A stretch of DNA of 38,955 bases from the sequence record SRR2962707_868; one strand, 5' to 3'. The translations under genes were made by a program, and so were the position numbers. Shown piece by piece: positions 30,621 through 38,955 of this stretch. The notes beneath the pieces were generated by a model that was given only the letters and a program-made list of their open reading frames with translations, did no database searches and was not told where the DNA came from. Positions within the stretch are counted from its first letter, which is position 1, and the number at the start of each line of letters is the position of its first letter.

Positions 30621-33600
30621 TTAGTCCTTCTTAACCCAACGTTGCTTAAACGTCTGATCACCGGACTTTATTTCTACAATATAAATGCCTGCCTTATGGC
30701 TACTCATATCTATTTGTGTATTAAGCGTACCGTTTGCTCGAGATGCCTCATAATGAATCGTTCGTCCATTAAGATCTAACACTTTGATTTCAACATCTCC
30801 AGATAAACTTTCATTGAGCGATATATCCATTATGGTACCACCAGGATTAGGATAAAGTGCCAATCGTTCATCTGTATCATTTAAGCCTAGCGGAACTTCA
30901 TTGACTGTCAGTGTGAAAGCTGCAGTCACAGATTTTCCAAAATCATCTATGGCTTTTACGTTGATATTCAGTTCCGCATCATCGTCAAACTCAATTGGTT
31001 TGATCACAACAAGTTGATCTCCATCAATCACAAACTTTTTATTGTCAGCATCATTCGTGCCGTCACCGGCAGTTAAGAAAATAACGTGTGAATCATCAAG
31101 GTTTGGATCAACAACTGTCAACGTACCAATGGACTCACCGATTGGCGACCCTTCATCAAAGGATTCTATTGACAACTCTATACCTGTTGGAGCCGCATTG
31201 GTATTGAAAAAGACCCTGATATAATCTTTTGGCTCTTCATCATCTAATGTTTCAAAACAACATCCTCCTTCACCACCCTCTACCGGGTACGCGAGGTTAC
31301 TAATTAATAGATCTAAATCATCATCGCTATCCGCATCCATCATCTCAATTTCAATACCTCCGACATCATTCAGGGCTTGCTTTTCTTCAAATGTGCCACT
31401 TCCATCGTTGACGAACGTAAGAGCAGAATAGGTATATGAAGAAGTGGTTTCATCATAAGACGATTTGTAAGTAGCTACTATATCTGGTGAACCATCACCA
31501 TCTATATCTCCCACTTTCATATCTCCATCAACACCTCCTGAAGACTCTCCTCCTAATTCTAATGTTTGAGCTGAACTAAAATTCGCTGCACCATCATTCA
31601 AGTGGATATCAATGGCTACTCCGTTTCCATCTGTATTGTGTAAGATGGCTACATCAATATCTCCGTCTCCGTCAAAATCAGCAGAAACCACTTTATTGAG
31701 GCCATAATCAGCAGATGTTGTCACAGCTGCAGGTGTACCATTCAGAGAACCTTCTCCCCCGTCTGATCCAAAGTAAACGACATCATCGTCATTTGTAAAT
31801 GCAAAAAACACATCGTCTAAGCCATCACCATCAAAATCCCCCACTGCGATATCTCCTTCCGCCCCGTAATTAAATACACTATATGTTTCATCCAATGGAC
31901 TCTCTCCATTTAGATATCTGCTAAAGATGGATAGCTTCACACCTCCGGAGTAGTCAAACAAAGCTGCAATATCATCAGAGCTATCCCCATCAAAATCACC
32001 TACGACAAATTTTTGGGCGAAACCGTAGTAACCCACACCTCTAACATCATCGATTTGTCCATTCTCACGGAAATAAAAGATGTCTATGCTACCATCATTC
32101 TCTCCACCAATCAGATCATTTACTCCATCGTTATTTACATCAAAAAAGATCGCATCATGCATTGCATACTTACTAGGAACACTTGATGGAGTAAAGAAAC
32201 TTTGATTCTGGCTATACAAGGAGTTTGTGAAAACGGCATCTAAAGCCTCACTCCGAACCCTGTAATAACTATCTGAATTTGAAGACTTAAACAAATCATC
32301 ATCCCCGTCTAAATCAAAATCTCCAGAAACAAACGTTGTAGGAGTAGCAGTACCAAATACCGGCTGACCTACTTCTGAAAAGGTCCCATGACCGTCTTCA
32401 GATAAATTACGAAGTTTAATATTTCCTACTTCGCGACTTGTCTTTGTGCCATCACTGATTAAAATTTCAACTGAAAATTCTGAACCATCTTCCTCCCAGT
32501 CAAAAACATCTGCAGTAGAAATCGCCCCAGTTTCAAAATCCAGATTAAAAGAAGCAGCATCGTCACCCTCAAATCCGACAATGGTAACATCATCACCTTG
32601 TACGTCATATAGTGATAGATAACCAAGCAACGTACCTGATGGAGTATTCTCATCAAAAATAACATCGCCTACAAAACCATTCACATAAGGAGCTGCACGG
32701 TCATATACAAAGTACAACCATGGTGAATCATAATCAGCTACAAAATCAGCTACCCCATCGCCATCAATGTCTCCTATCGCTACGTTATACGTATCAAAGT
32801 AGAAACTTCCAACCACTCCCCCAGCAAGACTTCTTCCTTCGAATGTTGTTCCATTTAGAGATGCCAGGTATGCTCCATCATTACCAAATCCAATCAATAG
32901 ATCGTCATCACCATCCAAATCAAAGTCGGCAACACCGGCAGTCTCAACCCTATACGATGAAGTATCCGGAAGATTCGAAAATGACGCAGCTACAAATGTT
33001 CCTGTTGATCCCTCATCATGCTGGTTTAAGCTTCCTCCCAGGTAGGCGAAATCTTCATCATGAAAAAAGACATCATTATCGCCATCTCCATCTGCATCCA
33101 GAATAGTAATGCCAACAAAATCATCACCAAAATAATCAGAGTCTAATACTGTCTCAAAACCTTCTCCACCAAATACCGGATCTTGGCCGGCATCTGCGGT
33201 ATTTTGCATTGCGAATAGGTACCTTCCACCTTCTCCTCCATCGCGATTACTCACCAGATCCATAACGTTATCGCCATCTAAATCAGTGAATTCAAAATCA
33301 GTGATACCGCCGTTTCCTGAAACAGAAATGGTTCCTTTATTATTTTCTCCTCCTGAAATAAATGAGCCAGATTCGTTTTCGAATACAGTTAAGTAGCCAC
33401 TACCTCTGGAAAGTACCAAATCCAAGTCATTATCGGAATCGAAATCAACTAAATCAATATCATATGTTCCGAATTGTCTCCCAAAAGATCCTGGAAAATA
33501 TGAAGCTGAATAGGAGTACTCCTCGTCTATTAAATTGAAATTGCCCTCACCATCATTCAATGCTAGGTAAAAACCATAACCACTTTGGAAAATCACATCA

Positions 33601-34100
33601 TTGTCCAGATCTCCGTCCACATCACCTACCCAAAACTCCCCACGCATGTCGTTTAATCCGTATAGACTCTGTCGTGACCAACTGGTTTCTCCTCCTTCCT
33701 CAACTCGATTAAAAATTTTAGGAGGCCCGCCTGGAACAGAAACTAACAATTCAAGATCGCTATCCGAATCAAAATTCGCCAACTCCATATGCTGTGGACT
33801 CTCTCCTCCCGTATAAACATAAGTCTCAGTTCTAAGAAAAACATTCGGGTCCTGAGCATTTCCAATAGCCGGGATAGCAGCCAATGCTGTAAATGATCCT
33901 GCAACGGCAGCCCCTCTCATGGAGAATCCCATTTTTTCCAGCCGGGTTTTATATTTATCTACTCTGGAAACAAGTTGATTTTTTTTCTTTCGTGGAAGTG
34001 CATCGAACTGACCTGAGGAAATTTTCTTTTCAAGTCTTTGCTTGAACTTATAATATTTCTCTTTAGCAACGTTGAGTGATTGTTGGTAAAAGTTATTCAT
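30621..34100 (-). CDS. T9SS type A CTD protein: extended signal peptide, two FG-GAP/VCBS propeller + cadherin-like units
   Basis: Fourteen D/N-x-D/N-x-D-x-x-x-D/E loops in two groups of seven. Cadherin-like segments (AAP...DENTPSGT...D; NAAP...DEGSPIG...DPN). CTD motifs LYPNP...LDLNGR...GIYIVEI...WVKK. Confidence 0.9.
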   Translation of the reverse strand: MNNFYQQSLNVAKEKYYKFKQRLEKKISSGQFDALPRKKKNQLVSRVDKYKTRLEKMGFSMRGAAVAGSFTALAAIPAIGNAQDPNVFLRTETYVYTGGESPQHMELANFDSDSDLELLVSVPGGPPKIFNRVEEGGETSWSRQSLYGLNDMRGEFWVGDVDGDLDNDVIFQSGYGFYLALNDGEGNFNLIDEEYSYSASYFPGSFGRQFGTYDIDLVDFDSDNDLDLVLSRGSGYLTVFENESGSFISGGENNKGTISVSGNGGITDFEFTDLDGDNVMDLVSNRDGGEGGRYLFAMQNTADAGQDPVFGGEGFETVLDSDYFGDDFVGITILDADGDGDNDVFFHDEDFAYLGGSLNQHDEGSTGTFVAASFSNLPDTSSYRVETAGVADFDLDGDDDLLIGFGNDGAYLASLNGTTFEGRSLAGGVVGSFYFDTYNVAIGDIDGDGVADFVADYDSPWLYFVYDRAAPYVNGFVGDVIFDENTPSGTLLGYLSLYDVQGDDVTIVGFEGDDAASFNLDFETGAISTADVFDWEEDGSEFSVEILISDGTKTSREVGNIKLRNLSEDGHGTFSEVGQPVFGTATPTTFVSGDFDLDGDDDLFKSSNSDSYYRVRSEALDAVFTNSLYSQNQSFFTPSSVPSKYAMHDAIFFDVNNDGVNDLIGGENDGSIDIFYFRENGQIDDVRGVGYYGFAQKFVVGDFDGDSSDDIAALFDYSGGVKLSIFSRYLNGESPLDETYSVFNYGAEGDIAVGDFDGDGLDDVFFAFTNDDDVVYFGSDGGEGSLNGTPAAVTTSADYGLNKVVSADFDGDGDIDVAILHNTDGNGVAIDIHLNDGAANFSSAQTLELGGESSGGVDGDMKVGDIDGDGSPDIVATYKSSYDETTSSYTYSALTFVNDGSGTFEEKQALNDVGGIEIEMMDADSDDDLDLLISNLAYPVEGGEGGCCFETLDDEEPKDYIRVFFNTNAAPTGIELSIESFDEGSPIGESIGTLTVVDPNLDDSHVIFLTAGDGTNDADNKKFVIDGDQLVVIKPIEFDDDAELNINVKAIDDFGKSVTAAFTLTVNEVPLGLNDTDERLALYPNPGGTIMDISLNESLSGDVEIKVLDLNGRTIHYEASRANGTLNTQIDMSSHKAGIYIVEIKSGDQTFKQRWVKKD

Positions 34101-34118: not shown

Positions 34119-36272
34119 TTATTTCTTAATTAAAACATTCAAATCAAGAGCAGACCCAACTTCAAAATCTTTTGGCACATTTCCTTTTTTGAATCTTATT
34201 AGCGCTTTTTGGTAGGCTTTTTCCAAGTATCTAACTTGTAATTCCGTATCAAAAAGTGCATTCTTATCAACGGCTTGCAGCTTTTCTTTCATGGCTTCTA
34301 GTTCGGCGGCACTGGTAGCAAGTCGGATTGACTGTGTAATATAGTCAATCTTTGTGAGACAAATAAGGTTTTCCATGCCAGAATATTTTAGTAAGCTGGA
34401 CCCTATTCTACTATTATGATTATTCCCTTTTAGCGTAATAAGTGGAACCCCCATTTGTAAGAATTCTATACCTGTCACGTGTGCATTATAGATGAAATTA
34501 TCAAGAAATAAATCCGCATGATGGAGACGTTCCCAATGCTTTTTGATCTCCATAGGCTGAGCAAACACGATCCGATCATGAGTAACACCAAAATCAGTAG
34601 CCTTTTCCCTAATCAATGAGTCAAAGCCCTGCTGACCTCCATTATAAAGCCATAACACTGAATCGGGCGTGTTTTTTAAGATTTCCATCCATGCACTGAA
34701 TGTCTCTGGATCCAGTTTTTTGGGGTGATTGAAGTTAGCGAAAATGAAAGCATCCGGTAGTCCATGATCTGATGGTGCTGTTCTGTTTTCTTTATCAACC
34801 GGGAATTCACTATTGATCAGCAATGAACATGGAAGAGTGATTACCTTTTCACTGAAATTCTTTCTCAAGCCTTTATCAATCATATACTCATCTGAAAAAA
34901 CGTAATCAATAAAATCAGCACCCGTAGTTTCATGAGAGCCTATGATTACCATTTGAACGGGTGCAGGCCTGAGTGCCATAAGGCCAAATTTCATCGAAGT
35001 GTTATACCCTGCCAACGAAACCAGAACATCAATCCCAGTACGATTGATCAGGTCCGCTATCTCTATGCTTGTCTTTGATGATACGTCATGATAGTAGTCT
35101 ACCGAGTCCCTAATCTCTCTATTAATCCAATCATCCGATTGGACAAGAGAGAATGCATGGATTTCAAATCGCTTACTATCGTGTAAATCAAAGACCTGTC
35201 TAACAAGTGTGCCTCCTGGATGGAGCTTGAAATTTGGAGATAAATACCCCACTTTCACCTTTCCTTCTGATAGGGTATGATCATATTTTACGTCCGGAAA
35301 TTGTTGTTGAATCTCACTTTTGATCTTTGAGGCATACTTCTCAGCTACCATTCTGTATAGCTCAGGATCGACTTTCGAATAACTCAGTGCATATGGCACA
35401 ATCTCGAAGGGCGGATTATTCTCCCCGATATACCATTTTAAAATGTCATTAAGATCAGCTATGTCTGTCTCATATTCTGTCCAGTCTACTATATGCTGAC
35501 GAGCTATGATTTGATAAAAACGTATGCCTTTTCGATAGCTATCATTTCCCTTTATCAACCCATCAGAATATACCTTTAAAGCTTTTTGATAATCATGCTT
35601 TTCCTTGGCAAACAGTTGTCCTAAATTGAAATAAACAATTGATAAGCCTGGAGCAACTGCTAAAGCTTTTTCATAGTACTTTATGGCTTGGTCAAGTTGA
35701 CCAGACTGCTCATATAGGCTACCCAAATTACAATAAGCCATTCCCTCCTCAGGATAATGGTGTATTAGCTTTTGGTACAGGGATTCTGCTTTTTTATGGT
35801 TTTCTCTCTTTTGATACAGGTTTGCCAAATTGTTGAGTGCAGGCTTATAGTCCGGCTTGATCTTCAGACATTTTTCATATAGAGAAATAGCTTTAGGAAA
35901 GTGTCCTTTTACCGTAGCATTCTTTGCATAACAAAACCAAAATTTGGGATTCTTAATTTGTCCAGGGAGCTGCTCTGATTTTTTAAACCAAGGATACGCT
36001 TCATCATACTCACCCAACTGAAACAGAACAATCGCCAAGTTGACTTTCAGAAGCTTTTTTTCACAGTTATCTACTCCTTCTTTAAGCACCTCTGATGCTT
36101 TTACCAACTGATTTTGTTTGACAAGAACCTGAGCTAGAATAAGGTACGCTCCCATTCGCTCCGGATTCGCTTTTTTTAATCCTTGGCATAAATGGGCTGC
36201 TCCAGCCAGGTCATTTCGAGAGAGTAGTTTAGTGGCCTGATTTACGGTCGAAATGTATTCATGTTCATCCAT
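34119..36272 (-). CDS. TPR-containing GT41 (O-GlcNAc transferase/SPINDLY-like) glycosyltransferase
   Basis: TPR repeats (ALNNLANLY, AYCNLGSLY, VYFNLGQLF). Catalytic-half motifs VGYLSPNFKLHP, ALRPAPVQ, FANFNHPKKL and ADLFLDNFIYNAHVT. No signal peptide. Confidence 0.9.
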   Translation of the reverse strand: MDEHEYISTVNQATKLLSRNDLAGAAHLCQGLKKANPERMGAYLILAQVLVKQNQLVKASEVLKEGVDNCEKKLLKVNLAIVLFQLGEYDEAYPWFKKSEQLPGQIKNPKFWFCYAKNATVKGHFPKAISLYEKCLKIKPDYKPALNNLANLYQKRENHKKAESLYQKLIHHYPEEGMAYCNLGSLYEQSGQLDQAIKYYEKALAVAPGLSIVYFNLGQLFAKEKHDYQKALKVYSDGLIKGNDSYRKGIRFYQIIARQHIVDWTEYETDIADLNDILKWYIGENNPPFEIVPYALSYSKVDPELYRMVAEKYASKIKSEIQQQFPDVKYDHTLSEGKVKVGYLSPNFKLHPGGTLVRQVFDLHDSKRFEIHAFSLVQSDDWINREIRDSVDYYHDVSSKTSIEIADLINRTGIDVLVSLAGYNTSMKFGLMALRPAPVQMVIIGSHETTGADFIDYVFSDEYMIDKGLRKNFSEKVITLPCSLLINSEFPVDKENRTAPSDHGLPDAFIFANFNHPKKLDPETFSAWMEILKNTPDSVLWLYNGGQQGFDSLIREKATDFGVTHDRIVFAQPMEIKKHWERLHHADLFLDNFIYNAHVTGIEFLQMGVPLITLKGNNHNSRIGSSLLKYSGMENLICLTKIDYITQSIRLATSAAELEAMKEKLQAVDKNALFDTELQVRYLEKAYQKALIRFKKGNVPKDFEVGSALDLNVLIKK

Positions 36273-38689
36273 CAGCTTATATAGATATCACCTGGCTGTT
36301 CATCTTTTTCATACGTCTCCCACATTTGCTCATAGGCTTTTTCTAAGTTACCGATCAAATGACAAGTATCGAAAAGAGGAGCTTTTTTCTTAGCCTCCAT
36401 CATTGCCTGCTTGAGTTTAGCTAATTGCCCTGCATCGTTTCCTATTGAAACCGCCTTATCCACGTACGCCTCCATGCTGTCAACCACCATGTCATTCATA
36501 CCTATGGCATGTAAGAAAGAACCGCACAGACGTGAACTCACAGACTCCCCTTGCACTGTCAATACGGGCACTTCCATCCACAGTGCCTCCAAACAGGTCG
36601 TATGTCCGTTATAGACAGGAGTATCCAAAAACAGGTCAATCAATTCTATTCTTCGGTAGTGATCACGATAATACTCCTTTCCACAGAAAATCAACCGATC
36701 CGATCCTAGACCTGCATCTTCGGCCATCTTTTTCATGTTGCTTTCTACTATTTTCTGATCGGAATGATAAAGCCAAAGGACTGAATCAGGAACTTGCTTT
36801 AGAATACTAAACCAGGCATTAATCACCCAATGGCTAAGTTTTCTGGGATGATTTAAACAGCCAAATACCAACCCCTTTTCCGGCAACCCATAATCTCCTC
36901 GTTTTACTGTCTTATCCGAAGGGATCATCTCTGCATTCAAGAAATAGCTTGCTGGCAGGTACGCAATTGACTCACTAAAAAAACGCCTGTTATTCTTGGT
37001 GAATGCTACATCGTCACCAAATCCGTAATCAAAAAAATCCGACTGGAGGGTTTCATTGTAACCCATGTATATCGCTTGTATCGGTGCTGGCCTGAGAGCT
37101 GGAATCTCCATCTTCATGCCAAAATTGTACCCTGACAAACTGATCAGGATATTGATACCATCTTCATTGATTCTCTTCGCTGCATCTTCCACTTTCAAAT
37201 CATCCAGATCAATAAAATGATCTGCATTATGACGAATCTCATTACTGATCTCATCGTCCGATTTCCTCAAACTATAGGCATATACTTCAAACCTTTCCCT
37301 ATCGTGATACTTGAATAGATCTTTTGCCAGCATCGCGTCCGGATGTACCCTGAAGTTTGGTGATAAATAAGCTATCTTAATCTTTTCACCACCGGACTTG
37401 TAGTCGAAATCTAGTTTATCTCTTAAAGGCTTAATTCGATTAATCAAACCTGACGTATATTTTTTTGTAACCTGGGATGCTAAGCTCAAGTCAAACGGAT
37501 AGTAGGCCAGATTATATACAGGGATGTCATCGTCTTGTCTATCGCTCTGAATAAATTGCTGGAGCTGTGAGGAGACCTTCGCCAGCATTTCTTCATACTT
37601 ATCAACCCTACCTTGCTTTGAGTAGAGCAGCTGCAAAGTCATGCTAGCCCTTAGAGCAAATTCAGGATGCTTATTGACTTTTAACAGATACTCCTCCGCC
37701 TGCTCAAGTCGATGAACAAAATCTAATACAGCACCCGCTAGAAAAGTAGACTCCCAGGCATATTGATTTTTCTCAATAAATGGAATCATAAGATTAAGGA
37801 ATTTTTCAAATTCAAATTCCCGCATCATGATTCGACCTAATTTAATATACGGCTCTTCACTTCGGGCCCCTCGGTGAATCAGTTGATTTAATATGCCTAA
37901 ACCTTCCCTTTTCTGCCCGTTCCAATAGATAGTGGATGCATAAGTACTTATGTATTTATGATTATCCGGATCTAACTGAACCGACTTCTGTAGTAGCTTT
38001 ATGGCTTTTTCATGATTATGACGAGTACTTTCGATTACTCCTAAATTGTAAAGTGCTAAGGCATTTTGCGGATCTAGTTCAAGGGCTTTTACATATAGCC
38101 GCTCAGCCTCATCTATTTTTCCAAGCTTTTGAATAAGGCCGGCTTTATTGCAATACGCCATTGGAAAAACCGGATCAATAGAAATGATTTTATCATAACA
38201 CTTCAGTGCCTGATCGTAATCGTACAGCTGCTGATACAAATTTCCCAGGTTATTCAGTGCTTGCTTATGATCCGGCTTTAGCTCAATAACTTTTTGATAC
38301 AATTCGGTAGATTCGGTGAATAAGCCTAGCTCTTTCAGATTTCGCGCTGCATGAAACAGTACTTTGACGTTCTCTCCGTGATACTGCACCAAAAAATCAA
38401 AAGCTGATTTGGCTTCCTCCAACTGACCCAGTTTTATAAGTGCTCTGCCTTTCTGTAAGAGTAAGTCTGGATTTTTCGGGTGAACGGAAAGTCCATGATC
38501 ATACATTTCTATTGCTTGATCAAATTTTTTCTCCTGATAAAAGGACTGACCTTTCATGATAATACTCTCCACATGTCTGGGTTGAATTTTTAACACTTCA
38601 TCATAGAGTTTTCTGGCCTCCCTTAATTTCCCAGACTTATGTAGATCAAGAGCAGTATGATAATACGTATTGATGCTGACCCGAGACAT
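36272..38689 (-). CDS. TPR-containing GT41 (O-GlcNAc transferase/SPINDLY-like) glycosyltransferase
   Basis: Long TPR array (ALNNLGNLY, AYCNKAGL, ALYNLGVI). Motifs IAYLSPNFRVHP, ALRPAPIQ, FGCLNHPRKL and DLFLDTPVYNGHTT. The stop overlaps the next start (TGATG). Confidence 0.92.
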   Translation of the reverse strand: MSRVSINTYYHTALDLHKSGKLREARKLYDEVLKIQPRHVESIIMKGQSFYQEKKFDQAIEMYDHGLSVHPKNPDLLLQKGRALIKLGQLEEAKSAFDFLVQYHGENVKVLFHAARNLKELGLFTESTELYQKVIELKPDHKQALNNLGNLYQQLYDYDQALKCYDKIISIDPVFPMAYCNKAGLIQKLGKIDEAERLYVKALELDPQNALALYNLGVIESTRHNHEKAIKLLQKSVQLDPDNHKYISTYASTIYWNGQKREGLGILNQLIHRGARSEEPYIKLGRIMMREFEFEKFLNLMIPFIEKNQYAWESTFLAGAVLDFVHRLEQAEEYLLKVNKHPEFALRASMTLQLLYSKQGRVDKYEEMLAKVSSQLQQFIQSDRQDDDIPVYNLAYYPFDLSLASQVTKKYTSGLINRIKPLRDKLDFDYKSGGEKIKIAYLSPNFRVHPDAMLAKDLFKYHDRERFEVYAYSLRKSDDEISNEIRHNADHFIDLDDLKVEDAAKRINEDGINILISLSGYNFGMKMEIPALRPAPIQAIYMGYNETLQSDFFDYGFGDDVAFTKNNRRFFSESIAYLPASYFLNAEMIPSDKTVKRGDYGLPEKGLVFGCLNHPRKLSHWVINAWFSILKQVPDSVLWLYHSDQKIVESNMKKMAEDAGLGSDRLIFCGKEYYRDHYRRIELIDLFLDTPVYNGHTTCLEALWMEVPVLTVQGESVSSRLCGSFLHAIGMNDMVVDSMEAYVDKAVSIGNDAGQLAKLKQAMMEAKKKAPLFDTCHLIGNLEKAYEQMWETYEKDEQPGDIYIS

Positions 38690-38694
38690 TGAAT

Positions 38695-38955
38695 TTATTC
38701 TGAATCATTTTTGGTGACGGAATTGGTTGCCGTATCTGTATTTGCATACGGGCCTTTTGATTGTTTTTCTTTGGGTGGTTCTTGCCAAAAAATACGTTTC
38801 GGAGTAATAATCGCCCGTGTATGAATTTCATTAATGGTGTTTAGAATGTTTGGACGCATTATCCCTGGTAGAATATGAACATCGTATAATTCTTTCACCG
38901 CATTTTGATACTCAAGAATTCCTTCTACACGTTTGGTTCTAAGATTTACTATTGC
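38695..38955 (-). CDS. C-terminal part of a probable TIGR03032/DUF4915 family protein (5' end outside window)
   Basis: The frame is open to the window edge: AIVNLRTKRVEGILEYQNAVKELYDVHILPGIMRPNILNT...TPKRIFW. The ELYDVxxLPGxxRP pattern matches my recollection of the TIGR03032 C-terminus. The stop lies 5 nt before the GT41 start. Confidence 0.7.
   Translation of the reverse strand, partial: AIVNLRTKRVEGILEYQNAVKELYDVHILPGIMRPNILNTINEIHTRAIITPKRIFWQEPPKEKQSKGPYANTDTATNSVTKNDSE

Follow-up and report, generated by a model that had tools for sequence, protein, structure and literature searches.

Extended signal peptides on type IX secretion cargo whose distribution follows TIGR03032 genes

Signal peptides with an extension have been described in autotransporters and in the glycoprotein adhesins of Gram-positive bacteria. 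The KxYKxGKxW accessory-Sec and YSIRK leaders are long basic signal peptides carried by adhesins whose glycosylation takes place in the cytoplasm, ahead of export. The leaders of ribosomally synthesized and post-translationally modified peptides (RiPPs) are N-terminal, better conserved than the core, encoded beside tailoring genes and removed by a peptidase. For the HMW1 adhesin with its GT41 enzyme HMW1C (and related N-glycosyltransferases, NGTs), glycosylation is described as cytoplasmic (PMC8151025), and the NtraC model divides signal peptides of more than 40 residues into an N-terminal domain, a turn and a C-terminal targeting domain (PMC2447879, PMC2805444). Here we describe an extended signal peptide, or leader, on a calcium-binding surface protein that is cargo of the type IX secretion system (T9SS). 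It is encoded in a stretch of 38,955 nucleotides from sequence record SRR2962707_868, the whole of which is called the window, downstream of two genes combining TPR and GT41 domains and of the end of a TIGR03032/DUF4915 gene. The leader represents a new family of such peptides, whose specific partner in the genomes is TIGR03032. A literature search for extended signal peptides on type IX cargo gave general papers, none of them specific.

The leader family and its start codon

The cargo open reading frame (ORF) occupies positions 30621..34100 of the window (minus strand) and encodes 1159 residues. Its N-terminus reads MNNFYQQSLNVAKEKYYKFKQRLEKKISSGQFDALPRKKKNQLVSRVDKYKTRLEKMGFSMRGAAVAGSFTALAAIPAIGNA, followed by Q, and residue 82 ends at 33855. 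The first 60 residues contain 16 K/R and 5 D/E (net charge +11); thereafter comes MRGAAVAGSFTALAAIPAIGNA, then Q. The remainder of the cargo is 19.7% D/E and 4.4% K/R. These counts agree with the initial annotation, made from the letters of the sequence, which had pointed out a basic extension of about 60 residues before the signal peptide of an acidic protein. The duplicated motif KFKQRLEK / KYKTRLEK that it had noticed lies at residues 18-25 and 49-56, and the cargo ATG (34100-34098) does lie 18 nt past the GT41 stop (TAA at 34121-34119), in the same frame. The leader motif can be written K[FY]KxRLEK and is present twice, 31 residues apart.

The leader belongs to a family. A phmmer search with residues 1-85 against 1.84 billion representatives (E ≤ 0.001) matched 33 proteins, 31 of which align at target residues 1 to about 85; P0028 and P0029 were dropped as unrelated internal matches. 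In every family match the leader is at the N-terminus of the ORF and the protein is an FG-GAP type IX cargo. In full-length members acidic residues make up 16-20%, and the C-terminus is a T9SS tail of type A or of type B (CHU_C). In an alignment of 35 leaders (A1), M1, K18 and G30 are invariant and K15, Y16, R22, F32 and Q83 are found in at least 90% of the members. AlphaFold2 run on this alignment predicts helices at residues 3-29 and 37-66, with a predicted local distance difference test (pLDDT) score above 90 for residues 10-50 (92-94 in blocks across 11-50) and below 50 in the hydrophobic core. The extension is thus modelled as two predicted basic helices around an invariant Gly turn. A strict form of the motif, K[YFL][KR]x[RK][LI][ED], occurs twice at the identical 31-residue spacing in 19 members out of 35, and the first 58 residues of every one of the 35 sum to a net charge between +9 and +15; the repeat and charge features exceed chance. 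The window leader has the N-terminal position, the two basic helices, the Gly turn, the core and the cleavage site between A and Q that define the family. The initial annotation had named lack of conservation in homologues as an observation that would count against a functional leader, and the 35-member family shows the extension to be conserved. Scans of the 35 members against Pfam and NCBIfam (E ≤ 10) gave chance-level matches only, residues 1-100 of the cargo have no match in the same two collections, and a look-up of the leader in the ESM Atlas returned no usable match.

The long start is supported by comparison with five close homologues (two of them named Ekhidna sp. at source), whose leaders are 71-85% identical to that of the window. 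Met57 is replaced by Leu in all five. Between the window and locus L001, codons 2-56 show 21 synonymous differences over 32.8 sites and 18 non-synonymous differences over 132.2 sites (dN/dS = 0.105). For seven further orthologues the proportion of synonymous differences over these codons is 0.77-1.08 (saturated) and that of non-synonymous differences 0.17-0.39. The L002 orthologue retains a leader 71% identical to that of the window, against 36% for the body over 1095 residues. Purifying selection on codons 2-56, the Leu in place of Met57 in the homologues and the better preservation of the leader than of the body show that the long start proposed in the initial annotation is real and that, on this comparative evidence, the 82-residue extended signal peptide is translated from it. 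A start at Met61 (or Met57), the upstream 56-60 codons being a spacer or a regulatory RNA and the long ORF an annotation artefact, has next to no probability left. Met61, RG and the hydrophobic core would indeed form a minimal signal peptide, and Met61 is kept in four of the five close homologues, the Val of the fifth being a possible GTG start. However, such a start is already contradicted by the comparative data: amino acids of codons 2-56 are kept while synonymous change is saturated, K/R exchanges are conservative, the frame is open from a Met at the equivalent position in 35 of 35 aligned members, Met57 is not retained, and several members of a second subfamily (see below) have no Met near the core.

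The signal peptidase site of the window leader is G80-N81-A82 followed by Q83. With small residues at -3 and -1 and Gln at +1, it conforms to the Q-rule of Bacteroidetes, by which signal peptidase I cleavage exposes Gln (PMC5837995, PMC10653852). Cleavage after A82 is a prediction; the +1 Gln is kept in at least 90% of the 35 members and in 17 of 17 members of the second subfamily. A Tat signal was rejected since a single R62 is followed by G, with no twin arginine, the family consensus at this point being K/R-G. An uncleaved signal anchor was rejected on account of the conserved site between A and Q and the T9SS C-terminal domain.

Of 11 paralogue pairs, nine show higher conservation in the leader than in the mature part. 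The two exceptions are L033 (leader 32%, mature part 85% identity) and L022 (53% and 56%). This conservation, the confident two-helix prediction and a conserved cleavage site that would leave the leader anchored in the membrane would all suit a role after cleavage, in which the 82-residue leader remains lodged in the inner membrane, its two-helix domain facing the cytoplasm, as a scaffold or as a signal (e.g. one reporting export to TIGR03032 or to gene regulation). Such a role is nevertheless highly improbable. Cleaved signal peptides are normally degraded, stability of this peptide is unsupported, and the mapped loci show no conserved gene for a regulator or a protease next to the module.

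Genomic association with TIGR03032

Loci of relatives were found with a 16-row leader alignment; the single leader as query gave no relative in genome contigs. The leader is present in 14 loci of species-representative genomes. Most of the 13 Ekhidna-type loci are arranged as TIGR03032, GT41, GT41 and one cargo gene or two, a leader being present on each cargo; in L008-L010 there is just one GT41 gene. In Ekhidna lutea DSM 19307 (L007), TIGR03032 directly precedes the cargo, with no GT41. An Ohtaekwangia metagenome-assembled genome (L014) shows TIGR03032, an AMP-binding gene, a P450, a cargo with a type-B tail and a PorP/SprF gene. In the same locus (L014:3177-9106), an APS kinase gene is divergent from TIGR03032, and the AMP-binding enzyme and the cytochrome P450 lie between TIGR03032 and the cargo. 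Copy number, counted in the genomes of relatives and not in that of the window, is one to three leaders per leader-bearing genome. Five whole genomes have one or two leader matches each, all at the TIGR03032 locus, and exactly one TIGR03032 gene each, about 6 kb or less from a leader gene. GT41 is found in three of the five; the E. lutea and Ohtaekwangia genomes have no GT41 match anywhere although leader and TIGR03032 are present.

In a sample of 401 genomes evenly drawn from the same order, the leader profile matches 32 genomes and TIGR03032 matches 52. Both occur in 29, the leader only in 3 and TIGR03032 only in 23 (Fisher p = 1e-26, shared ancestry not being corrected for). The leader-only genomes are G075, G351 and G363; the G075 match lies in a 115-residue open frame at a contig end. 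The two genes are at most 8 kb apart in 19 of the 29 genomes with both. Gene maps were drawn for 34 loci, the 14 species-representative ones and 20 from the 401-genome sample. The leader gene is next to TIGR03032 without GT41 in 15 of them, GT41 is in the cluster in 16, L040 has a leader gene alone, L041 has leader genes and GT41 but no TIGR03032 nearby (see below), and L014 completes the set. At least eight gene orders are observed, among them orders with TIGR03032 ahead of or behind the cargo, with the two genes divergent, or with GT41 in between, so that proximity of leader gene and TIGR03032 has survived rearrangement. Some TIGR03032 genomes scored as leader-negative bear weaker or diverged extensions on the adjacent FG-GAP gene, recognized by hidden Markov model (HMM) in L043 and L055 and by eye in L042, L044, L045 and L049. 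In three loci where TIGR03032 is fused to GNAT, the extension is shorter, at about 35 residues.

The leader therefore tracks TIGR03032/DUF4915 and does so independently of GT41. The initial annotation had suggested that the leader could mark all substrates of the system and that HMM hits might be restricted to loci with TIGR03032 or GT41. The leader is indeed tied to neighbouring genes, with TIGR03032 in 29 of the 32 leader genomes, which also disposes of a distribution unrelated to the modifying genes; the partner tracked, however, is TIGR03032/DUF4915 and not the TPR-GT41 proteins.

Specificity within a genome was assessed in the complete genome G001, where the N-terminal regions of all 40 type-A sorting-domain matches were read. 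Three frames are too short to judge. Of the 37 readable N-termini, 30 have a hydrophobic core starting at most 21 residues from the first ATG, 5 are ambiguous with no long basic extension visible, and 2 have an extension of about 60 residues, both at the TIGR03032 locus. Many other FG-GAP ORFs are present in G001, G003 and G005, none of them matched by the leader profile. The leader is thus restricted to FG-GAP type IX cargo genetically tied to TIGR03032. Because its distribution is tied to neighbouring genes, it works as a marker of the substrates of the system, a simple sequence tag that picks TIGR03032 clients from the dozens of T9SS proteins of a genome.

A scan of metagenomes with the TIGR03032 alignment returned 80 loci, 71 of them with a TIGR03032 ORF in the gene call. 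An FG-GAP protein is the next gene in 27 of the 71 (28 such neighbours). Starts were our own calls (first ATG/GTG/TTG after a stop) and are argued to be right since the leaders align from the first Met. Under strict criteria (a core that begins no earlier than residue 45 and at least +8 of charge before it), 24 of the 28 neighbours qualify. Two others (L073, L085) fail because the detector trips on a hydrophobic stretch in helix 2, the extension being shown by alignment. The real exceptions are L059:1787-4018 (core at residue 39, charge +3) and L079:510-4523, an FG-GAP protein of T9SS type with an ordinary signal peptide, divergent from TIGR03032. Most metagenome leaders are missed by A1 and form a second subfamily (A4, 17 sequences) with conserved R8, K9, R11, Q12, L13 and Q80; two of its members scanned with Pfam are FG-GAP and Por_Secre_tail proteins. 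When the two profiles are compared with hhalign, 60 columns align without a shift in register (probability 89%, E = 2e-6), the signal peptide itself making up some of them.

The second subfamily bears on the possibility that the extension compensates for a weak Ala/Gly-rich core, aiding the signal recognition particle (SRP) in co-translational export. The core of the window family is weak, falling under a Kyte-Doolittle threshold passed by 30 other cargo of G001. However, the core of the second subfamily is normal and more hydrophobic, yet the extension is retained. A few basic residues would suffice for such compensation, a need exceeded by a conserved 60-residue two-helix domain with a Gly turn, and the restriction to TIGR03032-linked genes would be left unexplained. 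We regard this explanation as improbable.

The leader-bearing protein L055:1136-2353 (plus strand), adjoining TIGR03032, has a signal peptide with a lipobox-like end (L-T-I-S-A-C), and some members may therefore be lipoproteins. In L051:4677-8841 and L054:4642-9339 the leader gene is far off and TIGR03032 lies beside 4-5 tandem ORFs of about 186 residues. L128:9108-11174 (plus strand) encodes a protein of 688 residues that adjoins TIGR03032 and has a basic extension of about 65 residues before a hydrophobic core; its C-terminus is a hydrophobic stretch followed by RRKK, with no T9SS tail. This extension may be a leader-like element outside Bacteroidota. The very large TIGR03032 neighbours L124:9214-17029, L130:2919-10777 and L133:1-3050 have few or no FG-GAP calcium motifs and share an Arg-rich N-terminus with an L-E-D-R-type motif. 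They are a different kind of client.

The features of the window are collected in Table 1. The cargo contains seven FG-GAP_3 stretches, one cadherin domain and a T9SS type-A tail at residues 1082-1158 (51.5 bits against PF18962, cut-off 27; 52.2 bits against TIGR04183, cut-off 23) in Pfam and NCBIfam scans, and the domain scan found no autotransporter or two-partner secretion domain. The TIGR03032 gene of the initial annotation is real, although the window contains no more than its last 86 codons. This fragment falls by tblastn inside ORFs of related loci, and the two of these that were scanned (L003, L007) score 355-369 bits against TIGR03032 (cut-off 251.5). From TIGR03032 through the two GT41 genes to the cargo, gene spacing is 5, -1 and 18 nt, the GT41 genes sharing one base at 36272 and the TIGR03032 stop lying 5 nt before the first GT41 start (38689-38695). 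The four genes look translationally coupled.

Table 1. Position of the leader, its parts and the neighbouring genes in the window
Feature	Position	Strand	Basis
Whole extended signal peptide, residues 1-82	33855..34100	-	Translation and family alignment
Basic cytoplasmic extension (putative), residues 1-60, net +11	33921..34100	-	Composition, purifying selection, AlphaFold2 helices
Predicted helix 1, residues 3-29 (conserved K15, Y16, K18, F19, R22, L23), followed by invariant G30	34014..34094	-	Secondary structure, conservation
Repeat copy 1, KFKQRLEK, residues 18-25	34026..34049	-	Translation
Predicted helix 2, residues 37-66, reaching into the hydrophobic core	33903..33992	-	AlphaFold2
Repeat copy 2, KYKTRLEK, residues 49-56	33933..33956	-	Translation
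Ala/Gly-rich hydrophobic core and predicted signal peptidase I site (G-N-A, then Q), residues 63-82	33855..33914	-	Translation, Q conservation
Mature cargo: acidic FG-GAP repeats, cadherin domain, T9SS type-A C-terminal sorting domain	30621..33854	-	Pfam, NCBIfam
TPR and GT41 glycosyltransferase gene	34119..36272	-	Pfam
Second TPR and GT41 gene, 1-nt overlap with the next gene	36272..38689	-	Pfam
TIGR03032/DUF4915 gene, 3' end only (86 codons), cut by the window end	38695..38955	-	tblastn into related loci

The TIGR03032 propeller and possible roles of the leader

No publication on TIGR03032 or DUF4915 was found in a literature search. TIGR03032 proteins have no signal peptide, the maximal 15-residue hydropathy being 1.6 in their first 75 residues, and to judge from their sequences they are cytoplasmic. 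An AlphaFold2 model (pLDDT 90.5) is a six-bladed propeller, and an alignment of 35 sequences has 39 invariant columns including D-x-C-H-L-N-G and M-P-H-x-P. A Foldseek comparison of the model with the PDB places Kelch and LRP6 on top (TM-score about 0.48), and a wide VIA-align search gives nidogen YWTD (Z 23.5), lactonases (about 20), arylsulfate sulfotransferase (19.7) and Kelch (19.1). Binders of the YWTD, Kelch and NHL kinds thus stand among the structural neighbours together with lactonases, strictosidine synthase and aryl-sulfotransferases; such generic six-bladed propellers do not discriminate between an enzyme and an adaptor. DUF4915 is fused to Sulfotransfer_3 in L113:7122-9014 and L134:2649-4370, to TPR and GT9 in L136:940-3321, and to one or more GNAT domains in L046:7267-9390 and L048:8451-11564. 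These fusions show that the propeller recurs beside or inside group-transfer enzymes. In a further fusion, L059:4202-6547 (plus strand), a single ORF carries DUF4915 (residues 18-330), a 30-residue linker, a membrane segment (379-403) with an A-x-A site, and FG-GAP repeats, and is open at the contig end. By the order of its parts, the L059 ORF has the propeller where the leader would otherwise stand, before the export segment of an FG-GAP protein and facing the cytoplasm.

These observations suggest a role for the leader. The basic two-helix domain of about 60 residues would remain in the cytoplasm as a handle bringing the TIGR03032 module (here with two TPR-GT41 transferases) to the unfolded preprotein, an encounter that would take place before or during threading through SecYEG. 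Signal peptidase I would then remove the leader and expose the Gln, and the T9SS would export the mature protein. We judge the chances evenly balanced that the leader is both a translated, cleavable extended Sec signal peptide and, through its basic domain, a handle for the TIGR03032 module. Direct contact with TIGR03032, the timing of this contact and any modification of the cargo are what we infer from these data, and the export delay and physical docking on the partners put forward in the initial annotation are likewise presumptive. A broader proposal is tentative and on balance doubtful: TIGR03032/DUF4915 would be a leader-reading propeller at the translocon that carries interchangeable transferases (GT41; fused GT9, sulfotransferase, GNAT) to the unfolded chain for a RiPP-like tailoring of full-length secreted proteins, with extensions also beyond Bacteroidota, the protein of L128 being a candidate.

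Several observations weigh against a handle for TIGR03032. The leader is only about 12% identical between the two subfamilies in the profile alignment, while TIGR03032 outside close relatives remains 33-47% identical to the L003 protein and keeps its 39 invariant columns; a diverging leader facing a conserved partner is not what a tight interface would predict. TIGR03032 is near neutral (median net charge -2) and therefore offers no obvious charge complement to the leader. In L033:66-4057 (plus strand), tandem cargo with 85% identity in the mature part share only 32% in the leader, with one TIGR03032 gene adjoining. In 10 of the 29 sample genomes with both genes these are not seen close together (8 on different contigs, 2 far apart on one contig), and the two leader genes of L041 adjoin a TPR-GT41 gene of 1310 residues, TIGR03032 being absent within 18 kb. 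Neither the ESPR, the extended signal peptide region of certain surface proteins, nor a signal peptide is described as needed for cytoplasmic glycosylation (PMC8151025). Finally, the co-occurrence could reflect TIGR03032 acting on the FG-GAP body, the leader serving export only. Co-folding of TIGR03032 with leader residues 1-60 scored 0.00 in two runs made without alignments or controls and carries no weight either way.

The main rival is export timing without contact. The leader would act in the manner of the ESPR, slowing or holding Sec translocation, or holding at the inner membrane a large acidic calcium-dependent propeller protein, and the genomic link would arise only from TIGR03032 acting on the FG-GAP body. 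Export-slowing extended signal peptides are reported as established for type V secretion system (T5SS) proteins (PMC8151025), the idea of a two-domain long signal peptide is in print (PMC2447879, PMC2805444), and divergence is much faster in the leader than in TIGR03032. However, other FG-GAP/T9SS proteins of the same genomes, some of them larger, have short signal peptides, so that size, acidity or fold alone does not require an extension. Moreover specific residues are kept beyond charge (the invariant K18 and G30; K15, Y16, R22 and F32), and in the DUF4915/FG-GAP fusion the propeller flanks the membrane segment on its cytoplasmic side. We consider export timing alone to be unlikely, if a serious contender.

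The leader suggests that TIGR03032 acts at the translocon, on its cytoplasmic face, and offers a means of probing what this widespread family does. The minimal two-gene form, TIGR03032 and cargo, exists in a cultured strain, Ekhidna lutea DSM 19307, which makes the idea directly testable. Should docking be confirmed, it would follow that a large secreted protein can bear a leader that is recognized for pre-export tailoring and is afterwards removed.

Comparison with described extended leaders

The ESPR (PF13018) resembles the window leader in being a conserved N-terminal extension before a canonical Sec signal peptide, found on a subset of large surface proteins, some of them glycosylated in the cytoplasm, and removed with the signal peptide (PMC8151025). 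However, the ESPR is about 25 residues long, against about 60 for the window extension with its two predicted helices and internal repeat, and it is carried by T5SS proteins whereas the window cargo uses the T9SS. The leader is also tied to a cytoplasmic family, TIGR03032; no such tie is described for the ESPR in the part of the source drawn on here (PMC8151025). None of the 35 leaders matches PF13018 at E ≤ 10.

The window leader is likewise a long basic signal peptide when set beside the KxYKxGKxW and YSIRK leaders. No match to the models of either was found among the 35 leaders in Pfam and NCBIfam at E ≤ 10; one leader has a chance-level match (E = 0.029) to TIGR04224 ser_adhes_Nterm. The hosts of the accessory-Sec leaders are Gram-positive, whereas those of the present leader are diderm Bacteroidota, and no SecA2/SecY2 genes were seen in the mapped loci. 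The ESPR and KxYKxGKxW precedents cited in the initial annotation are consequently analogies only, as no member matches such models.

As in the HMW1/HMW1C pair, the gene of a large, secreted, adhesin-like protein with an extended signal peptide has a GT41 gene as its neighbour. However, the GT41 proteins of the window have long TPR arrays and reach 40.8 bits against the NGT model, far below its cut-off of 1000, and GT41 is dispensable for the pairing of leader and TIGR03032. Glycosylation of T5SS proteins, moreover, is described as needing no signal peptide (PMC8151025).

The likeness to RiPP leaders is one of concept: the window leader would be absent from the product, is better conserved than the mature part and lies near candidate tailoring genes. 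Here, however, the substrate is a Sec/T9SS protein of 400-2400 residues instead of a short peptide, the leader is part of a signal peptide and would be cut by signal peptidase I, and there is no RRE-type (RiPP recognition element) domain, the candidate reader being a beta-propeller whose recognition of the leader is presumed.

NtraC is a general model drawn from vertebrate and autotransporter signals, with neither a sequence family nor a partner gene in the portions of the sources drawn on here (PMC2447879, PMC2805444). The window leader nevertheless shares its architecture: it too exceeds 40 residues and is made up of an N-domain, a turn and a C-domain.

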